IMG/VR virus record: IMGVR_UViG_3300015263_000944
Location: 107,395 to 171,394 of that record
Reading direction: 5' to 3' (one strand)
Source: a virus
DNA: 64,000 nt
Shown here: one piece after another, positions 7,623-58,667 of the stretch
Layout: each line of letters begins with the position of its first letter
How positions within the stretch are numbered: position 1 is the stretch's first letter
Position numbers and translations under genes: made by a program
The notes under the pieces: generated by a model
Seen by the model: the letters and a program-made list of their open reading frames with translations, nothing else
Database searches by the model: none
Told to the model about the DNA's origin: nothing

Positions 7623-7765
7623 TTCAGGATAGCTGATCTGAGATGAGATGGCAAGCTCTGTTCAACGCAAGAAGTGAACAGCAAAGTAAATGGTGCCCAC
7701 AATCAAAAGGATCTGCACCAGAAGGAGCAGACAAGATGGCACCCAATCAAAGTCATTATTCATAG

Positions 7766-7838: not shown

Positions 7839-8010
7839 ATTGGGGGCTCTGGCATCGTACAGAGCCCCTCGGTGATTGCCCACCCTCCCTCATCCAAGAG
7901 GTTGCATGACCGTCGTTACACCATCGTCGAACCGGCATACATTGTCGGGTGCCCAGCCGCAAGACTGATGATCACCGTGTTCTCACAGTGTCGCTCCGTC
8001 ATCGTCTTGC

Positions 8011-8163
8011 TTATCTATTGGCACCAATAACCGAAATTGTGATTGTCACGATGATCCCGGTGAAAAAGATGGCGAGCCAGAATGCCCATCGGGGAGGTGG
8101 TTCGACAGCTTCGTTCTTTCGGGCAAAAAGATGCCACAGAACAAACAGAAAGATATTATTCAT
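8011..8163 (-). CDS. Small membrane protein (~50 aa)
   Basis: Hand-found ORF MNNIFLFVLWHLF... Confidence 0.25.
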   Translation of the reverse strand: MNNIFLFVLWHLFARKNEAVEPPPRWAFWLAIFFTGIIVTITISVIGANR

Positions 8164-8458
8164 GTTCGTCAGGGAACAACTTCTTGAGGATCAGGCCACC
8201 GGCTCCCAACCATGCCGCCGTCCATGCGGCCAGCCCCAGAAGTTGCAATGTGATCTTAAGCTTCTTGTTCATTCTCCTCCTTCGGAGTCATCGACTTCTT
8301 CTTTTTCTTGAGCTTTTTCCATAAAGCTTTGATTTCCTTGTAAGCATCGGCGGCAGAAATGGGATTCCCCGCATTGGACTCCAGTGCAACTATGATGCCC
8401 ACCTTGTGTGCAAAAAGCTGGAGATCGTCTTCAAATTCTTCATCCATCTGCCCTCCTA

Positions 8459-8949: not shown

Positions 8950-9288
8950 TTAGAACGGATGATACACTTCTTTTGTCGCTATCCGAGTTGAGGCGATCTC
9001 ATCAGCTTCCGCCAACAACGCCGTTGCAATTTTTGCACTGGCCGTCTTGCCAGCCTCATCTCTGAGAGCAACTACCTGTTGATGCCATTGTTCCTTTCGA
9101 TGGGGGCAAGAGAAGTCATCGTAGGGCGACTTTCCGCCACACATTGCCTGTGCAAAGCCCCGTGGCCCATTGCAACCACGACGTTCATCCATCTGGTCCC
9201 CACAAACTCCACAGAAGACAGCTTCGCCTTCTGGCACCTCGCCCGGATCAGGCGTGTATCGAGATTGTGTTTTGGATTCGAGTTTCAT
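8950..9288 (-). CDS. Hypothetical Cys-rich protein
   Basis: 112 aa, CGVCGD...C.....C. Confidence 0.4.
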   Translation of the reverse strand: MKLESKTQSRYTPDPGEVPEGEAVFCGVCGDQMDERRGCNGPRGFAQAMCGGKSPYDDFSCPHRKEQWHQQVVALRDEAGKTASAKIATALLAEADEIASTRIATKEVYHPF

Positions 9289-10023: not shown

Positions 10024-10113
10024 GTCGGAGCGGAGGGAATCGAACCCACATCTCGGATTTATCAGATCCTAAGCCGGGTATAAGCCGGGTGCATTTCCAT
10101 TATGCTACGCTCC
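10024..10113 (-). tRNA. tRNA-Ile(GAT)-like with a 19-nt insertion between D-arm and anticodon stem
   Basis: Canonical acceptor, D-arm, anticodon arm (GGAT CTGATAA ATCC) and T-arm. The extra CCCGGCTTATACCCGGCTT carries a 9-nt direct repeat. Confidence 0.5.
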
Positions 10114-10164
10114 GAAGAGTCGGTGCGTAGCTGCATATGAGAAAATGTGTCATGGTTACTCCAG

Positions 10165-19138: not shown

Positions 19139-19274
19139 CAACATGTCCACGTCGTGGACATGTTGGTGAAACGTGTCGAAGTTTTTGCATTTTTTCGACA
19201 CGTTTCTGGAACGTGTCGCAATTTTTGCATTTTTGCGACACGTTTTTGTGACATGTCGTTATCGGCGACATGTC
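19139..19274. promoter_or_regulatory. Array of four palindromes sharing half-site AC(A/G)TGTCG
   Basis: Palindromes at 19139-19165, 19168-19206, 19211-19243 and 19250-19274. Confidence 0.5.
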
Positions 19275-19278
19275 AAAG

Positions 19279-19409
19279 TCGGGGAGGTAGGATTCGAACC
19301 TACAATCTTCAGTTCCAAAATACTGATGCTTGTTTGTAAGTTTCGCATGTGGGGGACGCCGAGGCGTCCAAGTTTGAGAAACTGGTGTTAACCATTTAGC
19401 TTCTCCCCG
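19279..19409 (-). tRNA. tRNA-like gene interrupted by ~57-nt conserved hairpin element (copy E); anticodon loop 8 nt (ATTTTGGA)
   Basis: Perfectly pairing acceptor CGGGGAG/CTCCCCG; T-arm GTAGGTTCGAATCCTAC; insert between D-arm and anticodon stem. Confidence 0.45.
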
Positions 19410-19411
19410 AG

Positions 19412-19483
19412 TAGCGACGGCTGGACTCGAACCAGCACTAACCGGCTTATGAAACCAGTGCTTTACCTTTAAGCTACGTCGCC
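19412..19483 (-). tRNA. tRNA-Met(CAT) elongator-type
   Basis: Loop TTCATAA. Confidence 0.7.
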
Positions 19484-19486
19484 ATA

Positions 19487-19777
19487 TCAAACGATGAACT
19501 TCCCTTGCAGGATGAACATCTCAAGCTGGTCGATTTCCTTCTTCGCTTTGACCAGATCTTTCGTTCGCAATCCGTAAGGACAGTCTTCGACGAAGTACGC
19601 CATTGCTGCTGCCTTTGCATCGTGAACCGAATACTGATCGAGCGGATCGACATACCTTTTCGACAAGACAACCATCTGAACTGACCAGATTGCCCGACTC
19701 CGAATTTGCTCTTCGGTGATCGGTTCTTTAGGTTCAGGCGGCTTCCGTCTAAAGAGACGAACCAGCCAGCCAAACAT
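19487..19777 (-). CDS. Hypothetical protein
   Basis: 96 aa. Confidence 0.4.
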   Translation of the reverse strand: MFGWLVRLFRRKPPEPKEPITEEQIRSRAIWSVQMVVLSKRYVDPLDQYSVHDAKAAAMAYFVEDCPYGLRTKDLVKAKKEIDQLEMFILQGKFIV

Positions 19778-19827
19778 TTTGCCTCCGAGGACTTGCTATA
19801 CACATAGCTACTCCTCATAAGGCAAGG

Positions 19828-19901
19828 TCGGGAAGACAGGATTCGAACCTGCGACCCCCTGCTCCCAAAGCAGGTGCTCTACCAAGCTGAGCTACTTCCC
19901 G
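19828..19901 (-). tRNA. tRNA-Pro(TGG)
   Basis: Loop TTTGGGA. Confidence 0.8.
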
Positions 19902-20007
19902 ATTGTAACCATCCAAGTCGATGCAGCAGGTGTCCCCTGCGCCCATGGCAGGGGACAAACAAATCCGAAGTTTTGTTTGTAAGCTCCATCAGTAGGAGAT
20001 GGTCAAG

Positions 20008-20079
20008 TCCTCCCGGCTGGAATCGAACCAGCGTGTACGGTTCCACAAACCGCCGCTCTCGCCACTGAGCTACAGAAGG
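20008..20079 (-). tRNA. tRNA-His(GTG), no encoded G-1
   Basis: Loop TTGTGGA; a copy of the conserved element plus a GC hairpin lies in the 3' trailer. Confidence 0.6.
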
Positions 20080-20087
20080 ATAAAAAG

Positions 20088-20211
20088 TGGAGGTGGTGGG
20101 ATTCGAACCCACATTGCTTTCGCCAAAAGAAAGTTTTTTACCGTTTGTATGTTCCGCAGTTGGGGGATGGCGAACCATCCAAGTTTGAGAAACAGTGTTT
20201 TTTACACCCCC
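20088..20211 (-). tRNA. tRNA-like gene interrupted by conserved element (copy F); anticodon arm CTTTC TTTTGGC GAAAG
   Basis: Acceptor GGGGGTG/CACCTCC; degenerate D-arm. Confidence 0.4.
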
Positions 20212-20237
20212 GGTTGTTGAATGACACGAACCATAAA

Positions 20238-20258
20238 GAATGGTTCGCAGCATTCGAG
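20238..20258. other. Perfect 8-bp hairpin CGAACCAT-AAAG-AATGGTTCG next to tRNA-Pro
   Basis: Seen directly; possible processing or terminator hairpin. Confidence 0.4.
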
Positions 20259-20332
20259 TCAGGATGAAAGGATTTGAACCTTCGACCTTCTGGCCCCCAG
20301 CCAGACGCTCTCCCAAACTGAGCTACATCCTG
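20259..20332 (-). tRNA. tRNA-Pro(GGG)
   Basis: Loop CTGGGGG. Confidence 0.75.
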
Positions 20333-20519
20333 TTGTGATTGTGCTGGTGCATACAGCCAAGCGGGCTTCAAGGTTAGATCAGGGCAATGTTACATGCCAC
20401 ACCCTCTGGACCACACAATCATTGAACGATTTTCTCGCCCACCAGATATCACACCGAGCCGAATAGGCGTTGCTCATGACGGCTTGTTGGCCGTAACAGA
20501 TTTCTCTGTTGTGTGAAAG

Positions 20520-20664
20520 AGCCCCCGACTGGATTCGAACCAGTAACCTCTCGCTTAGAAGGCGAAATTGTTTGTAAGCTTCACATGTAGGGGACAAGCC
20601 GAAGCCCGTCCAAGTTTGTCAAGCGATTTAACAGTAGTGCTCTAGCCAATTGAGCTACAGGGGC
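20520..20664 (-). tRNA. tRNA-Arg(TCT) interrupted by ~71-nt conserved element (copy A) between D-arm and anticodon stem
   Basis: 5' exon GCCCCTGTAGCTCAATTGGCTAGAGCA. 3' part TTCGC CTTCTAA GCGAG plus T-arm plus CGGGGGC. Confidence 0.5.
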
Positions 20665-20700
20665 CTGTTGTTTTGCCCGTTTTCAAACGGAGCCGAAAAG

Positions 20701-20841
20701 AGCCCTCGACCGGATTCGAACCGATACTACCCCCTTGGAATGGGATTGTTTGTAAGCTTCACATGTAGGGGACAAGCCGAAGCCCGTCCAAGTTTGCCAA
20801 GCGAGTAAACGTAAGGTGTGCTACCATTGCACTACGAGGGC
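20701..20841 (-). tRNA. tRNA-Gly(TCC) interrupted by ~70-nt conserved element (copy B)
   Basis: Acceptor GCCCTCG/CGAGGGC; anticodon arm ATCCC ATTCCAA GGGGG. Confidence 0.5.
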
Positions 20842-25888: not shown

Positions 25889-26584
25889 TTAGAAACGGTC
25901 TGGCGCAGGTCGCATCCGCTGCGTCAGTATGTCAACATAAACTTGCTCGAAGTTCACCTTGTCTTGCTCATAGGCGTAGTAGCAGTTGCACATCGCACTT
26001 GCTATCGCCAGATTGGTGAAGAGCAATTGAGGGTTTGCGTGAGCTTCCTGCTCACATCCCTGTCGCTCCACATCCGTCAGATCGCCGGGGTTTTTGTCTT
26101 CCGGCTGTGCGATCTTGGGATGCAAAGCTGTAGGTGGCTTCGTCACGTCCTTCCCATCCTTGCGGATATAGACGATGACGTTGCCATCGATGTAATCGTT
26201 TCCCCCACTGATCAGAGTCACATTGTCCAATTCTTCACAGCGGTCGGAAACCAATTTGCGTGTGGCATGGTTGTCCACACACAAAAACACGACATCTTCG
26301 TTTCTGATGGAAGTGATAATGTTGTCTTCGGTCAGGTACTCGCCCTTTGCTCGCAGGTGGATCTTTGGGAATTCCCCTTTGAGTGTATTGACGGTGTGTT
26401 GGGCCTTGTTCTCGCATTCTGTGAATCGTTGTCGTTCTCGGTTGCGTTCCTCAAAACGATCACCATCGAAAACAGTCATCTCAACAAAATCGTCGGAATG
26501 GCTCAGGTATCGGCACAACGGTTCAAGAAGATGTCCCCCAATACCGCCAGCACCGATCACTTTGATCTTTCGTGTCTTTTTCAT
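25889..26584 (-). CDS. E1-like ThiF/MoeB-family adenylyltransferase
   Basis: KIKVIGAGGIGG Rossmann motif; DGD..E..N..RQ; VVFLCVDN. Confidence 0.8.
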   Translation of the reverse strand: MKKTRKIKVIGAGGIGGHLLEPLCRYLSHSDDFVEMTVFDGDRFEERNRERQRFTECENKAQHTVNTLKGEFPKIHLRAKGEYLTEDNIITSIRNEDVVFLCVDNHATRKLVSDRCEELDNVTLISGGNDYIDGNVIVYIRKDGKDVTKPPTALHPKIAQPEDKNPGDLTDVERQGCEQEAHANPQLLFTNLAIASAMCNCYYAYEQDKVNFEQVYVDILTQRMRPAPDRF

Positions 26585-27546
26585 TCTGTGTGTCTCCTGA
26601 AGAGCTTCTGATCAAATTCGGCCAATCCAACATTTGTAATGACGGTGATTTTGCCCTGTCGCACACTGACGACTTCAAAAGGCCCATCACCACAAACCGT
26701 GCGGAAAGACACAAGTTTCAAGTCGCCTGCCCATGCCACTTGGTCGCCAGCTTGTAAGCCACGCTCTTCTTTCTTGGACGACCATCCCCAAAAAGAAGGA
26801 GTTCCGCTTCCAGTGACTTGCGACATCCATTCATCCAAGTCTGCGGCCCACTCGGCTTTTTCTTCTTCGGAAACACCAATGATGGCGTATTCCGAATCTC
26901 CCTTTCTCAACTCGATTCCTTCCAGAACATCTGCTGGATCAACTTGATTGCGTATGCCATTCACAACCACAGATGCACTGATCGTGAAGACCTCTTTGTT
27001 GTTGTGTCCGAAAGTGCAATGAAGTCCGTCGAAATCTTCTTCGTCATGAACGTCAGTACCAGAATGAAACGCCCCGAAGTCACAGTGAGAATGAATCGTC
27101 CCTACACGCAAATAGTCTTCCATGCCCTCGACGTGACTCAACCCACAACGCTCATAGTTGACGCCGCCGTGAGTTACTCTTTGCTGAGGAATGTGGATCT
27201 TGAAAGACTCATCCGATTTTCGGTAGTAGAGCGTGGTGGCTGCCTCAGCGTGATGCTTCTCGACAACACGTCGAAAGAACTCTTTGATTCGCCAGACGAG
27301 TCGAAGCGGAAGCTTGGGCAGTGAACACTCCACATACACATCAGCTTCCAGATCTTCAAGAACACTGATGTTCTCAACAGGAACAAAGGCTTTGACGATG
27401 CCTGTATCCTTATGGAGCCACATACCGTTCCCGGCGACGAGGTAGTAAGTGCCCTGCTTGGGCAACTCCATGCCGGGTTCATAGATGTGAATTGGAAAGC
27501 CGGGATTGAAAGCGTCTGTCATCTGAACTTCCTTGTTCAATCTCAA
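26581..27546 (-). CDS. JAB/MPN+ (JAMM) metalloisopeptidase
   Basis: HSHCDFGAFHSGTD JAMM motif. Confidence 0.8.
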   Translation of the reverse strand: MRLNKEVQMTDAFNPGFPIHIYEPGMELPKQGTYYLVAGNGMWLHKDTGIVKAFVPVENISVLEDLEADVYVECSLPKLPLRLVWRIKEFFRRVVEKHHAEAATTLYYRKSDESFKIHIPQQRVTHGGVNYERCGLSHVEGMEDYLRVGTIHSHCDFGAFHSGTDVHDEEDFDGLHCTFGHNNKEVFTISASVVVNGIRNQVDPADVLEGIELRKGDSEYAIIGVSEEEKAEWAADLDEWMSQVTGSGTPSFWGWSSKKEERGLQAGDQVAWAGDLKLVSFRTVCGDGPFEVVSVRQGKITVITNVGLAEFDQKLFRRHTE

Positions 27547-48219: not shown

Positions 48220-50306
48220 TACAGCATCTTCTCCAAGTCGCCCACGGTGAGGACCGGGATGTTCTTCTCGATGGCTTTCTTCTCCTTGCTGGAGATGCTG
48301 CCAGAGCCGTGCTGCTTCACGACGTAGTTGGTCTTGCTGCCGACCGACGACTGGCAGTTGCCGCCCAACTCAGCGATCCGATCTTCCCAGTGCTTCTTGC
48401 CGAGATCGAAATCGCCAGTGAGTACAAAATTTGTACCGGACAGCTTGCCGGTCTTCGGCATCTCCAGTTCGACGTGGTTCGCCAGCAACGTGCCAATGAT
48501 GCCATCGTTCGTCGAGAAATACTTGACGATGTTCTCGGCTGTGGTCTCACCGATGCCTTCGACTTCGAGCAGTTGTTCCTTCGTGGCCGTGACGATCTTG
48601 TCGAAGTCGCCGAAGTGTGGCACCAACGCCTTGCCTGCCGTCTTGCCCGCACCGGGAATCCCCAGCGACGAGAAGAAGACCCAGCCCTGCACCACCAGCT
48701 TCTCTGAACGGGCCTTCTCGATGGCAGCACGCAGTTTGTCATCGTCCTTCTGTGGCTTGACCTTGAAGATCGTCGCCAGAGCCAACACCGCTTGGCGTTC
48801 GGAGAACCCGGCGTCGAGCAGGTCTTGTTCGGTGAGATCATACAAGGTGTCGAGTGTCTTTACCTTGCCGTGATGGATGATCTGGGCCATGGCGGCTCCA
48901 CCCAGTCCCTTGCAGCCCAACTGCTGCAAGTAGAAGATGAAGCCCTTGATGTGCTTGGCGGCACATGCTTCGTTCTCGCACAGCAAGTCTTTGTTGCCGC
49001 TGGCACTGACTTGCAGCTTCAGCTTGGACTGACAGGTCGGACACTGGGTCGGTGCGCCAATGTCCTTGACCGGCGTGAGAACTTCCATGATGTTCGGGAT
49101 GATCTTGCCGCCCTTCTTCGTCTTCACCTTCGCTCCGGGGCCAAGACCCTGTGCTTCCATCCAACCGTAGTTGTTGCAGGTGGCACGAGTGTTCTCGGTG
49201 TCGGCCAGAACGAACGGTTCGTCGAAGATCGCCGTGGGCACCACACGACCGGTGCGGCTGGCGTTCCATTCGATGGACGAGACGACGGCTTCAGCGGTTT
49301 CCTCTTCGTACTTCCACGCCAACGCACCCCGAGGCTCATTGACCGGATCATCGCCGGTATGACCCAACTCCTCTTGGAGTTCGAGATCGTTGACCTTGAG
49401 CACCACACCATCGGTATAGTATGGCAACTTCGGAGCGTGTGCCTCCATCATTGCCAGATGTTCGAACTTGTGGATGCGGACCTGAACGAAGAAGCCCTTG
49501 CCCTTGTCGTCCTGAAGGTTCAGACCTTCCTCGCTGTTGGCCCACTTCGCCCGTTCCACTTCCGTCTTGTAATACTTCTGCCAGTCATCGAAACCGGTGA
49601 TTGAGTAGAAGCCAATCCGCAGACGTGCATTCTCGGTTTCCTTGGGGTCGTCACGGCCCAGACAGCCAGCCGTGTAGTTGCGGGGGTTCTTGTAAGTGTC
49701 TTCGCCTTCCTCTTCCCGTTCGGCGTTGACCTTATCGAAGTCGTCGAACCAACATTCGATCTCGCCGTTGAGCGATAGCGTGAAGGGGTGCGGAAGCTGC
49801 TTGGGCACACCGAGGATGTTCGGGGCGTGGCGAGTGACATCGGTGCCGTTGATGCCGTCACGGGGCCGCAGACCGGCACTGACGAGTTTGCCCTTCACAT
49901 AGTTGACACGGATGGCAACACCGTCTCGCTTGTATGAACCGGCGAGGGTGAGCTTCTTGGGATCGACGCCGAGACGCTGAGCACATGCCTCGATCCACTT
50001 CTGGTAGATGGCTTCCTTCTCTTCCTGCGTGCCATCCGCCTTGGAGATCGAAGTCATCGGCGGATCGTGGACGACAACATCGCCCTTGGTCTTCGCCGTG
50101 GAAGGGCTGGTGCCCTCGAAGGCGATTGACTTGGGCCGACGAGTCTTCAATTCCCGATGGAGAGCATCATATTCGGGATCGGTGATCTCCGTACCGTCGA
50201 AATCTTCGACGTAGCCATTGAGTTCATATTCGGTGGCCGCATGAATGACCAGCTTTTCGAGTGCGTCCACATCTGCGAATGTACGGCTACCGACTGTGAT
50301 GCTCAT
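48219..50306 (-). CDS. ligA: NAD+-dependent DNA ligase (LigA)
   Basis: KxDG adenylation motif (SYKRDGVAI); Cys4 Zn finger CPTCQS...C..EAC; HhH (GIPGAGKTAGKAL); C-terminal BRCT. Likely start MSITVGS. Confidence 0.85.
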   Translation of the reverse strand: MSITVGSRTFADVDALEKLVIHAATEYELNGYVEDFDGTEITDPEYDALHRELKTRRPKSIAFEGTSPSTAKTKGDVVVHDPPMTSISKADGTQEEKEAIYQKWIEACAQRLGVDPKKLTLAGSYKRDGVAIRVNYVKGKLVSAGLRPRDGINGTDVTRHAPNILGVPKQLPHPFTLSLNGEIECWFDDFDKVNAEREEEGEDTYKNPRNYTAGCLGRDDPKETENARLRIGFYSITGFDDWQKYYKTEVERAKWANSEEGLNLQDDKGKGFFVQVRIHKFEHLAMMEAHAPKLPYYTDGVVLKVNDLELQEELGHTGDDPVNEPRGALAWKYEEETAEAVVSSIEWNASRTGRVVPTAIFDEPFVLADTENTRATCNNYGWMEAQGLGPGAKVKTKKGGKIIPNIMEVLTPVKDIGAPTQCPTCQSKLKLQVSASGNKDLLCENEACAAKHIKGFIFYLQQLGCKGLGGAAMAQIIHHGKVKTLDTLYDLTEQDLLDAGFSERQAVLALATIFKVKPQKDDDKLRAAIEKARSEKLVVQGWVFFSSLGIPGAGKTAGKALVPHFGDFDKIVTATKEQLLEVEGIGETTAENIVKYFSTNDGIIGTLLANHVELEMPKTGKLSGTNFVLTGDFDLGKKHWEDRIAELGGNCQSSVGSKTNYVVKQHGSGSISSKEKKAIEKNIPVLTVGDLEKML

Positions 50307-50373
50307 ATGACGATCTCCTGTTGAATTTGGCGGACCTCTCACATTGTATGGCACGGGAGAGACCCGGTTTAGG

Positions 50374-57613: not shown

Positions 57614-58667
57614 TGTCCTTCCCGTTGATCTGCAAATAGTGATCCGGCGTCTTCCCAGACAACACATCTCTCGTCAAGTCAAGCATGTATCGCTTGAAAG
57701 TTCGATCAAATTGCTCATAGTCGTTGAACTTCAGCACCTCTTTCAAGGCATCAAGGCCACTTTTGTCTGATGCTGTCTTAAGGAATTGGTGGAACGTATC
57801 CTGACCAAACTCCTTGCGGATCATCAGACAGAGACAGAATGCCGATTGGTCAAACAGTCGTTTGTTGGCTTCTGAGAGACTCGCATATTGATCACGGCTC
57901 ATGGTCAGCAGACCTTCGCTGAAATACATGGGCTGGTTGCCTTCCAATCGAGGTTTCAAATCCTTGAGTTCCTCTCGAATCTGACCAAGCGAACCATTCA
58001 GCACAGCAATCCCACGATCCGACCACCATCCAAAATTTGCATTGTACTTCTGCTGGAACTCGGCCATGACTACCTCCGTCAGAGGCACGGGCACAGTGTG
58101 GGACGGGGAACCATTGATGAGCAAAAACACAACAGTTTCCTTGATCTTACCTTCAGGGGTTCGACGCACTTCCACACGACTCGAAGTGAGCTTGAACAGC
58201 TTCTCGAACAAAGCAGGGTCATCGACACAGATCATCTTGCATTCTGTAGAGAAGTCGATGTCATAGAAGCCCCAGCGAGCCAGCATCCAAGTCTTGATTT
58301 GCTCAAGGTGCTTGTGCAAGAATTCCGCTTGAGTGTTGTTGAGAGAAAGCACAGTAAAGTTCTTGCTAGTCCAGCGGTTCCATTCCAGCCCTTCAATGTC
58401 CTTTGGGATATTGCTGGCATTGTGCATCTCGGTTGTGACTTCCAATGGAAGACGAACCTTGGTGATCGGAGTCTCGTCGGCTGCAAACGCAGAACAAGAC
58501 AAGAACAAAAGAATCAGTAGACTTTGCAAGAACTTCACTTTGTGCCTCCAGTGGTTAAGCAGCAAGTTCCCGGAGATCCTGTTCATTCCAGTCGCTCCGA
58601 ATTCGATCCTTGTACTGCTTGATGAGTTGGCTGATTCTGCTTTCGCTGACGCCAAACTTGGCCCCAA
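57576..58667 (-). CDS. Secreted hypothetical protein
   Basis: Internal signal peptide LLILLFLSCSAFA. The start is uncertain. Confidence 0.45.
   Translation of the reverse strand: MGPSLASAKAESANSSSSTRIEFGATGMNRISGNLLLNHWRHKVKFLQSLLILLFLSCSAFAADETPITKVRLPLEVTTEMHNASNIPKDIEGLEWNRWTSKNFTVLSLNNTQAEFLHKHLEQIKTWMLARWGFYDIDFSTECKMICVDDPALFEKLFKLTSSRVEVRRTPEGKIKETVVFLLINGSPSHTVPVPLTEVVMAEFQQKYNANFGWWSDRGIAVLNGSLGQIREELKDLKPRLEGNQPMYFSEGLLTMSRDQYASLSEANKRLFDQSAFCLCLMIRKEFGQDTFHQFLKTASDKSGLDALKEVLKFNDYEQFDRTFKRYMLDLTRDVLSGKTPDHYLQINGKDTKLSSSVFSSSS

Follow-up and report, generated by a model that had tools for sequence, protein, structure and literature searches.

Can the tRNA genes of a bacteria-infecting virus be interrupted between the D-arm and the anticodon stem, and if so, by what? 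This question is raised by a stretch of 64,000 nucleotides (nt) from the IMG/VR record IMGVR_UViG_3300015263_000944 (positions 107,395 to 171,394; the whole stretch is called the window below), whose content looks like that of a huge phage. ARAGORN finds 47 tRNA genes in this window, all on the minus strand. A first, sequence-only reading had noticed that seven of them carry a conserved structured element between nucleotides 26 and 27 and had implied that this is an excised intervening sequence. We propose instead, with a probability of about two in three, that the element is not an intron and is the docking stem of a Y-RNA family partnering with a divergent Ro60-like protein, and that the seven genes encode protein-tethered tRNA mimics, here called tRNA chimeras A to G.

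A covariance model built from the copies recovers the same seven genes in the window (42-53 bits, E ≤ 2e-8) and also relatives in related phage loci, while no other match in the 64 kilobases (kb) exceeds 23 bits. In the capped form described below, the insertion is thus present exactly seven times, always 3′ of the D-arm and on the minus strand. Six of the intervals first listed for these genes stand as given, and gene F begins at 41976 instead of 41975. The consensus of the element was confirmed, and the copies' sequences and folds agree with the remark that its hairpin varies but always pairs, including the G·U pairs of GGACGGGC/GCUUGUCC.

The element, termed the module in the following, is 51-55 nt long, or about 60-70 nt with its linkers, and consists of two helices, P1 and Pa, around the invariant internal loop RACUY/CCNAYN. 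From 5′ to 3′, the capped module contains the 5′ strand of Pa (8 nt, starting with GCU or GUU), R-A-C-U-Y, the first strand of P1, a tetraloop, the second strand (P1′), C-C-N-A-Y-N, the 3′ strand of Pa (ending in AGC or AAC), one variable nucleotide, and UACAAAC. P1 comprises 6-9 base pairs (bp) and reads RGAC...GUCY in phages. About 20 nt are invariant, including UACAAAC, and they are concentrated in the internal loop and the 3′ tail. We also considered a universal helix between the AAAC of UACAAAC and a GUUU, but an exact GUUU lies within 14 nt of Pa in only 19-33% of the copies, and such a helix is therefore not claimed.

Covariation was assessed on 110 distinct modules in one register, forming a gapless alignment of 58 columns in which P1′-C-C-N-A-Y-N is present in every copy. 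Paired cells make up 89.3%, compared to 66.8% in shuffles and 31-48% with slid partners; compensatory changes on both sides occur at all 15 pairs, and none of 500 shuffles matches the observed score. Pa, which had no role in choosing the copies, is 83% paired and shows compensatory changes at all eight positions. In a separate covariance-model alignment of 40 natural capped copies, 92% is paired. Covariation in both helices thus bears out that an RNA structure, read from the tRNA strand, is conserved here.

The same data bear on the idea of a mobile DNA insertion flanked by CAAAC target-site duplications. Direct CAAAC repeats do flank the core in five of the seven copies, as had been noticed before, but the upstream one consists of variable Pa positions plus the conserved ACU and is not conserved across the module family, so it does not represent a target-site duplication. 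Moreover, G·U pairs and compensatory changes indicate selection on RNA, and in many relatives (see below) the two halves of the module lie apart around unrelated cargo. We rejected a mobile insertion, which we regard as scarcely credible, on account of the covariation, the split copies and the lack of conserved repeats.

The chimeras share one gene order: acceptor 5′ strand, D-arm, linker, Pa-ACUU-P1-loop-P1′-CCNAYN-Pa, UACAAAC, hairpin, T-arm, and acceptor 3′ strand. The module therefore sits at the junction of D-stem and anticodon stem of otherwise tRNA-like genes, as first described. In every gene, RNAfold predicts a long additional rod besides the acceptor stem, the T-arm and an anticodon-type hairpin. 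Acceptor strands, anticodon arms and T-arms had been called intact; the D-arm is canonical only in C and D, absent from B, and weak or non-canonical in A, E, F and G. Judged by the tRNA family RF00005 (a cloverleaf, and a T-arm with a GTTCRANYC loop), the seven host genes are tRNAs, with the caveats of these D-arms and of the 8-nt anticodon loop of A. The linker between D-stem and Pa varies in length and sequence from chimera to chimera.

After in-silico deletion of the module, ARAGORN calls a tRNA across the junction in all seven genes, and in six of seven by a stricter test; chimera C was called as Arg-ucu in 149 variants. Chimera A is matched end to end by the Rfam tRNA model (47 bits) despite its insertion of about 58 nt, and related copies of B occur in two other loci (L224 and L225). 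The D-arm of C is that of the ordinary tRNA at 7765 except for one added base in the D-loop, and the acceptor and T-arm of F are near-identical to those of the tRNA-Met at 19411-19483. C and F are thus clearly descendants of ordinary tRNAs of the array. Ordinary array tRNAs duplicate the anticodons of six of the seven chimeras, the exception being the uga of G, which is not found elsewhere in the window.

These observations could be explained by a true intervening sequence that some endonuclease and ligase excise at 26/27 to yield functional tRNAs, with the additional open copies described below serving as processing stems. In favour of this, deletion of the module leaves a callable tRNA in each gene, the anticodon loops of C, D and F are canonical, C and F descend from ordinary tRNAs, and G would provide an anticodon otherwise absent from the window. 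In addition, the D-stem/26 region of a tRNA contacts helix 69 of the 23S rRNA on the ribosome, and an arm at 26/27 should clash with this helix, so that decoding would require its removal. By the same token, an unexcised arm should prevent decoding, which fits a tRNA mimic. The 26/27 placement is indeed, as had been pointed out, without precedent among bacterial or phage tRNA introns, and the predicted folds and the ORFs scanned gave no sign of a splicing system. A bulge-helix-bulge (two 3-nt bulges, 4-bp helix) is absent from the junctions of all seven genes in both minimum-free-energy and centroid folds; the junctions form a multiloop at the base of the rod (GUUU/AAAC, Pa, loop, P1), and the only conserved loop, 5 versus 6 nt, lies inside the element. 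None of the 54 window open reading frames (ORFs) scanned with Pfam matches EndA, RtcB, or another RNA ligase or splicing endonuclease. Six anticodons are redundant, the linker is variable, the D-arm is missing from B, the anticodon loop of A has 8 nt, and UACAAAC imposes A-rich acceptor stems on the tRNAs enclosed in open copies, all of which speaks against excision to functional tRNAs.

A group I intron was rejected as well. The Intron_gpI model has no match in the window at the gathering score or in the two module regions at E ≤ 10, and the element is only 51-55 nt long compared to a catalytic core (P3-P9) of at least 200 nt, which usually resides in the anticodon loop. Applied to a related phage contig of 84.5 kb (L126), the Intron_gpI model did pick out two group I introns, which lie in the tRNA region at 7988-8175 and 8980-9178 (65-67 bits). 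More generally, Rfam searches of the window at the gathering score and of both clusters at E ≤ 10 gave only tRNA on the modules.

Free-standing copies of the module had been reported after tRNA-His and after the gene at 42326. Both exist, but they are circularly permuted (3′ half, insert, 5′ half), and three more are present in the window. These five open copies run from the P1 3′ strand through CCNAYN, the Pa 3′ strand and N-UACAAAC to the cargo, and from there through the Pa 5′ strand and RACUU to the P1 5′ strand; the cargo closes Pa, and P1 stays open. They begin 4-5 nt beyond the discriminator base of whichever tRNA or chimera comes before. Two of the five enclose a whole tRNA, and the other three have one or two small hairpins as cargo. 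In copy J, the cargo sequence AUUACCAAUGACGAUG (34484-34499), right after UACAAAC, is identical in the phage locus L224 (at 5662), and the Ro60-like protein of that phage is only 56% identical to the one of the window. The features are collected in Table 1.

Table 1. Module-bearing RNA genes of the window and the genes of the associated operon (CM, covariance model of the module; aa, amino acids).
Feature	Position	Strand	Module or half-modules	Description	Support
Chimera A	19279-19409	minus	19332-19382	uuug, 8-nt anticodon loop	CM 52.8 bits; fold; deletion test
Chimera B	20088-20211	minus	20143-20193	D-arm-less, uug	CM 46.7 bits; fold; deletion test (Gln-uug)
Chimera C	20520-20664	minus	20570-20624	canonical acceptor, D-arm, anticodon arm (ucu) and T-arm	CM 50.5 bits; deletion test
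Chimera D	20701-20841	minus	20748-20802	canonical tRNA body, ucc or ucca	CM 49.0 bits; fold with helices GUUU/AAAC, Pa and P1; deletion test
Chimera E	41045-41173	minus	41100-41154	uuu	CM 48.3 bits; fold; deletion test
Chimera F	41842-41976	minus	41900-41954	tRNA-Met-like, cau	CM 49.1 bits; deletion test (Met-cau)
Chimera G	42326-42453	minus	42377-42430	uga, no long variable arm	CM 42.0 bits; fold; partial Rfam tRNA match, 30 bits
Open copy H	19908-20003	minus	5′ strand (P1′ to UACAAAC) 19975-20003; 3′ strand (Pa to ACUU-P1) 19908-19927	4 nt after tRNA-His; cargo of two small hairpins	half-motif pairing 7/7
Open copy I	42232-42320	minus	42292-42320 and 42232-42251	directly after chimera G; followed by a U-tract	pairing 7/7
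Open copy J	34439-34528	minus	34500-34528 and 34439-34458	directly after the tRNA-like gene 34533-34654	pairing 7/7
Open copy K	41719-41837	minus		encloses a whole tRNA-Gly (ucc, 41744-41814), whose acceptor 5′ strand is the invariant ACAAAC	
Open copy L	40914-41039	minus		encloses a whole tRNA (aag, 40940-41014; acceptor AAACAUC/GAUGUUU); abuts the Ro60-like gene	
Ro60-like protein	39269-40837	minus		522 aa; predicted TROVE-type ring and vWA; presumed partner of the module	
71-aa protein	41309-41524	minus		possibly ubiquitin-like; conserved, and encoded ahead of Y-like RNAs and Ro60-like gene in bacterial and phage loci	
287-aa protein	37289-38152	minus		operon partner downstream of the Ro60-like gene	
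JAB peptidase	36668-37207	minus		operon partner downstream of the Ro60-like gene	Pfam/PADLOC matches
ThiF/E1-like protein	35464-36114	minus		operon partner downstream of the Ro60-like gene	Pfam/PADLOC matches

Relatives of the module were collected in two ways. An initial DNA-pattern scan of viral contigs was too loose (120 loci, essentially all chance); the tightened pattern, applied to 2.9 million viral contigs, returned 13 stretches in 13 contigs, with true modules in three (373, 390 and 84.5 kb). These three carry 7-16 module copies per locus, and all of them encode the Ro60-like protein. The second set consists of about 101 loci fetched around homologues of the ORF at 39269-40837, which encodes this protein in the window. 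When 3′ halves were matched by script to complementary ACUY-plus-7-mers, 275 modules emerged from 78 of these loci, 232 open and 43 capped, the latter nearly all in phage loci. A complementary partner exists for 275 of 316 3′ halves compared to about 6% expected by chance (our own estimate), and TACAAAC occurs 15 times in the window, always on the minus strand, where 4.1 occurrences are expected; taken together, these numbers exclude chance.

By covariance model, capped copies are present in nine of 15 IMG/VR phage loci and in the GenBank record LR756511.1, always upstream of the protein gene and on its strand. Capped modules within tRNA bodies are almost restricted to phages, where they occur in at least seven lineages and include Met-cau, Arg-ucu/ccu and Phe-gaa tRNAs. 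Module and protein gene occur together in at least ten huge-phage contigs, and the related IMG/VR contigs measure 84-572 kb. Among GenBank phages, the protein is encoded in a single record, the unannotated 595-kb uncultured phage LR756511.1. Bacterial modules, which come from Planctomycetota, Chloroflexota, Cyanobacteria and Desulfobacterota, lie 100-1000 nt upstream of the Ro60-like gene on the same strand, and copies L, E, K, F, I and G of the window lie 80-1600 nt upstream of ORF 39269-40837.

The bacterial loci reveal what the module is part of. In two Planctomycetota loci, a gene-poor gap of 900-1100 nt between an ORF of about 72 aa and the Ro60-like gene is filled by four to five tandem RNAs. 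These start with ..CGUAC-CCNAYN-..AGC-N-UACAAAC and end with ..GCU..-RACUY-GUACG followed by a U-tract, so that both ends lie in P1; the interior contains a T-arm, a closed acceptor-like hairpin and a D-arm. Altogether, about 175 bacterial copies of the module form the terminal stem of stand-alone RNAs, and a permuted tRNA-like domain is the cargo in 75 bacterial and four phage copies. Other cargoes are whole tRNAs, short hairpins and an RNA of about 290 nt, with the halves 30-450 nt apart.

An excised intervening sequence, as implied at first, is hard to reconcile with these data, since YrlA-like RNAs that stand alone, and have no exons to join, carry this module as their terminal stem, and in the window it also encloses whole tRNAs and small hairpins. 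We therefore consider a true intron unlikely. As judged from their gene order, the seven chimeras would be circular permutations of the bacterial RNA, in which the acceptor is opened, P1 is capped, and the natural tRNA ends are restored.

Two variations were seen among the relatives. In cyanobacterial loci (L198-L214), the module reads UACAUAC and CCYAAC with GCGC-type P1 helices, and it often encloses whole un-permuted tRNAs whose acceptor stem begins in UACAUAC. A cargo of 100-290 nt starting with GACGGUCCUAAGGUAG is found in open modules of L224 (3420-3720, identical to L121 5226-5530), L138 (2328), L152 (4782), L157 (4766), L163 (2502) and L169 (1720). This cargo may resemble the H69-H71 strand of 23S rRNA; the Rfam LSU models give no match, and we do not maintain an rRNA-like identity.

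The circular permutation also recalls small ribozymes. The module could be a new small self-cleaving ribozyme, or the target of a host RNase, cutting the transcripts of the tRNA array at or near UAC/AAAC. The module is naturally permuted, with either helix open, and in this would be like hammerhead and twister ribozymes, the invariant nucleotides cluster in the internal loop and 3′ tail, UACAAAC coincides with the 5′ end of the enclosed tRNAs, and tRNA-associated ribozymes, the theta ribozymes, do exist in phages (PMC10879173). However, no Rfam ribozyme family, among them hammerhead, twister, twister-sister, pistol, hatchet, hairpin and HDV-like/theta, matches any module at E ≤ 10; the only ribozyme rows of that scan, Twister-P5 (E 7.2) and drz-agam-2-2 (E 0.76), lie outside the modules. 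The motif could not be threaded on the HDV-like/theta (HDV, hepatitis delta virus), twister or hammerhead folds either, and these candidates were dropped. Furthermore, copies differ by up to 4 nt in where the predicted tRNA starts relative to UACAAAC, a cut at UACAAAC would halve the seven chimeras, and the linkage to a Ro60-fold gene and the YrlA-like architecture are explained without catalysis. We regard cleavage as quite improbable.

Which protein would bind the module? ORF 39269-40837 adjoins the module cluster at 40.9-42.5 kb and gave, at first, a weak match in the PDB to a "TROVE domain-containing protein". Its AlphaFold (AF2) model has a pLDDT (predicted local distance difference test) of 86, and the top 12 Foldseek matches of this model are all Ro60/Rsr proteins (human, Xenopus, Deinococcus, Thermus phage), aligned over the full length with E values of 6e-12 to 5e-8 and template modelling (TM) scores of 0.55-0.67. 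A 37-sequence profile searched against the PDB finds the Ro60 structure of Thermus phage phiLo (9l5y/9kop, E 9.5e-4), and homologues of the ORF match the Pfam Ro60 vWA domain. Along its entire length, the protein is thus predicted to fold like Ro60, with a vWA domain after a ring of HEAT-like repeats. Its family comprises at least 2000 members in Planctomycetota, Chloroflexota, Cyanobacteria, Desulfobacterota and huge phages.

The gene is part of an operon conserved in bacteria and phages (window 35464-41524; L133, L134 and others), in which a protein of 71-74 aa, the array of Y-like RNAs, the Ro60-like protein, a protein of about 290 aa, a JAB peptidase and a ThiF/E1 protein follow each other. 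Matches to the 71-aa protein were obtained by tblastn in 43 of 82 bacterial and 12 of 15 phage loci. These conserved neighbours suggest that a Ro60-type ribonucleoprotein may work with a ubiquitin-like conjugation module. The window contains a second cluster of a ubiquitin-like system on the minus strand, with ThiF/E1 (25889-26584), Prok-JAB (26581-27546) and Prok-E2_D (28589-29944). A 912-aa ORF (30608-33346, minus strand), about 6 kb from the Ro60-like gene, matches the shoulder domain of the major vault protein (E 1.7e-18) and a vault repeat (E 2.7e-6). Eukaryotic vault particles combine the major vault protein with a TROVE protein and small RNAs. A link of this ORF to the module/Ro60 system was rejected, as it was not found in the 3-6 kb flanks of other loci.

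The conserved operon allows for a different binding partner: the module could be the docking site of another operon protein (287-aa protein, E1, JAB or 71-aa protein) or of a host factor, with the Ro60-like protein binding elsewhere. Linkage cannot separate co-transferred operon genes, and the 287-aa protein, for example, could be the true binder; the 5′-strand motif with which canonical Y RNAs contact Ro60 (PMC4201824) is also missing. This alternative has a low probability in our view, as the architecture matches YrlA, whose terminal stem is the Ro60 site, with ACUUG at the equivalent position of the 3′ strand, and as the Ro60-like gene is immediately adjacent to the RNA arrays.

Several further observations weigh against a Y-RNA docking stem bound by the Ro60-like protein. 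No Pfam TROVE match was obtained for this protein even at E ≤ 10, and the YrlA motif GNCGAAN0-1G/GGUCCGA is absent from the module, where P1′-CCNAYN stands in its place. For these two reasons, the pairing of RNA and protein is based on gene linkage, fold and architecture. The twelve modules of the window form two clusters, one of which is 18 kb away from the Ro60-like gene. The roughly 20 invariant nucleotides exceed the conservation typical of Y-RNA stems and would also fit a catalytic or ligand-binding RNA. Finally, C, D and F retain the anticodon-loop signatures U33 and purine 37, and D retains Gly-like acceptor and discriminator features. A pure mimic would not need such signatures, which leaves room for a role in decoding after excision.

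It is conceivable, though unlikely, that the chimeras are working tRNAs with a permanent or regulated Ro60-docking arm, or that the module directs a new kind of excision at 26/27. In the case of working tRNAs, the Ro60-like/ubiquitin-like machine of the phage would hold, protect, license or release Met, Arg, Gly, Lys and Gln tRNAs during infection. Either variant would amount to a new layer of tRNA control, or to a new class of tRNA introns, in bacteria-infecting viruses.

For the docking stem, which we favour, the following course can be envisaged. A huge phage carries the Ro60-like gene with its operon and would have multiplied the RNA partner in two ways, as five open copies and as seven capped grafts. 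The Ro60-like ring would bind the region of P1, internal loop and Pa, by analogy to Ro60 and Y RNA. The module would remain as a permanent arm, and the chimeras would act as tRNA mimics, not as spliced pre-tRNAs. Their tRNA-shaped moiety might gate the ring or tether it to factors that handle tRNA, for example nucleases and enzymes of repair or modification. Binding by the Ro60-like protein, non-excision and downstream function are inferred.

Ro60/Y-RNA particles are conserved from bacteria to humans. Here, a large and apparently undescribed branch of this system would possess its own putative RNA docking motif, an operon with E1, JAB and a small protein, and interchangeable cargoes. The huge-phage loci, with up to about 16 modules each, would provide natural constructs for studying the role of a tRNA-shaped moiety on the Ro60 ring. 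For annotation, they call for caution: tRNAs of huge-phage arrays that look odd or "interrupted" can turn out to be Y RNAs, and the covariance model offers a handle for finding them.

The window holds other unusual tRNA-related features, again on the minus strand. Three tRNA-like genes between 34325 and 34760 (about 34690-34760, 34533-34654 and 34325-34432) carry an insertion of about 40 nt with two hairpins in the D-loop (GGCCCUUCGGGG..UGCGGCAGCAAUGNCGUG), and hairpins replace their anticodon loops; they represent another kind of tRNA chimera, distinct from A to G. The tRNA calls at 10025-10114, 33517-33616 and 34147-34237 are over-long (91-100 nt), the first apparently with two anticodon-like arms (uau and gau). 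Dense inverted repeats (gacatgtcg/cgacacgt) fill 19140-19270 between tRNA-Trp and chimera A, and tandem repeats (gtgatcccacaagtgaagtc; cgaactaag..gatagcg) are present at 33900-34100 beside the odd tRNA-like cluster. An NAD-dependent DNA ligase (48219-50354) and a sigma-70-type factor (58555-59169) are also encoded.

Finally, we compared the module family with known systems. Non-canonical tRNA introns and permuted tRNAs of archaea and Cyanidioschyzon likewise show a tRNA body interrupted outside the anticodon loop and circular permutation, but there a bulge-helix-bulge is cut by EndA and the ends are joined by a ligase, whereas the module also exists as the stem of a stand-alone RNA. The long variable arm of class II tRNAs is another extra helical arm leaving the tRNA core at the level of the 26-44 pair; in contrast to the module, it emerges from the other strand (44-48), lacks a conserved internal loop and acts as an identity element for the synthetase. 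Theta ribozymes, which are HDV-like and associated with phage tRNAs (PMC10879173), are also small structured RNAs at tRNA genes of uncultured phages. They adopt the nested double-pseudoknot HDV fold and are located 3′ of tRNAs, while the module has a two-helix, internal-loop structure without a match to the HDV family.

In metazoan Y RNAs, too, a conserved helix-and-loop stem, where Ro60 docks, is joined to an effector module that varies, and human Y1 contains ..ACUUGAC.. on its 3′ strand. Unlike the module family, metazoan Y RNAs lack a tRNA-like module, carry GGUCCGA with a bulged C on the 5′ strand, and are Pol III transcripts.

The closest likeness is to YrlA, a group of tRNA-mimicking Y RNAs also present in phages, in which a 5′-strand motif, GNCGAAN0-1G (related to GGUCCGA), is thought to contact Ro60 (PMC4201824). 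Like the RNAs described here, YrlA is encoded beside a Ro60-type gene, often several in a row, and like the bacterial ones it joins a tRNA-like domain to a second helix and a terminal stem whose internal loop is conserved. Outward from the core, both present a closing helix of 4 bp and a small asymmetric loop, then a helix of 7-8 bp, and finally the conserved internal loop and the terminal helix, and in both, ACUUG abuts the terminal helix on the 3′ strand (YrlA consensus AaAcUuG). The 26/27 site would correspond, by this analogy, to the point at which the Ro60-binding stem leaves the tRNA-like body in YrlA-type RNAs. The YrlA model RF02553 scores 32-40 bits on the bacterial RNAs (E 1e-5 to 1e-3), below its gathering score of 69, and covers T-arm, closed acceptor and D-arm; on window regions it reaches at most 23 bits and falls on ordinary tRNA parts.

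The structure of a phage Ro60 has been solved (PMC12135203), and TROVE proteins of jumbo phages have been noted (PMC7824862); in the literature, we found no description of this RNA motif, protein subfamily or operon, or of Y-RNA stems grafted into un-permuted tRNAs. The gene context differs from that of YrlA, which is rtcBA compared to the operon with E1, JAB and a small protein, and the partner protein is too divergent for Pfam TROVE. Unlike YrlA stems, the stem in phages has been capped and placed within un-permuted tRNAs, or it surrounds whole tRNAs. The open copies of the window retain the stem topology of YrlA with whole tRNAs or hairpins as cargo, while the capped copies have their ends in the acceptor stem. 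With the 5′ motif replaced by CCNAYN, and with an invariant UACAAAC that has no counterpart in YrlA, the family represents a distinct variant, which goes with its divergent protein. Most likely, its members are Y RNAs distantly related to YrlA, and the seven genes of the window encode tRNA/Y-RNA chimeras belonging to this variant of the Ro60/Y-RNA system.

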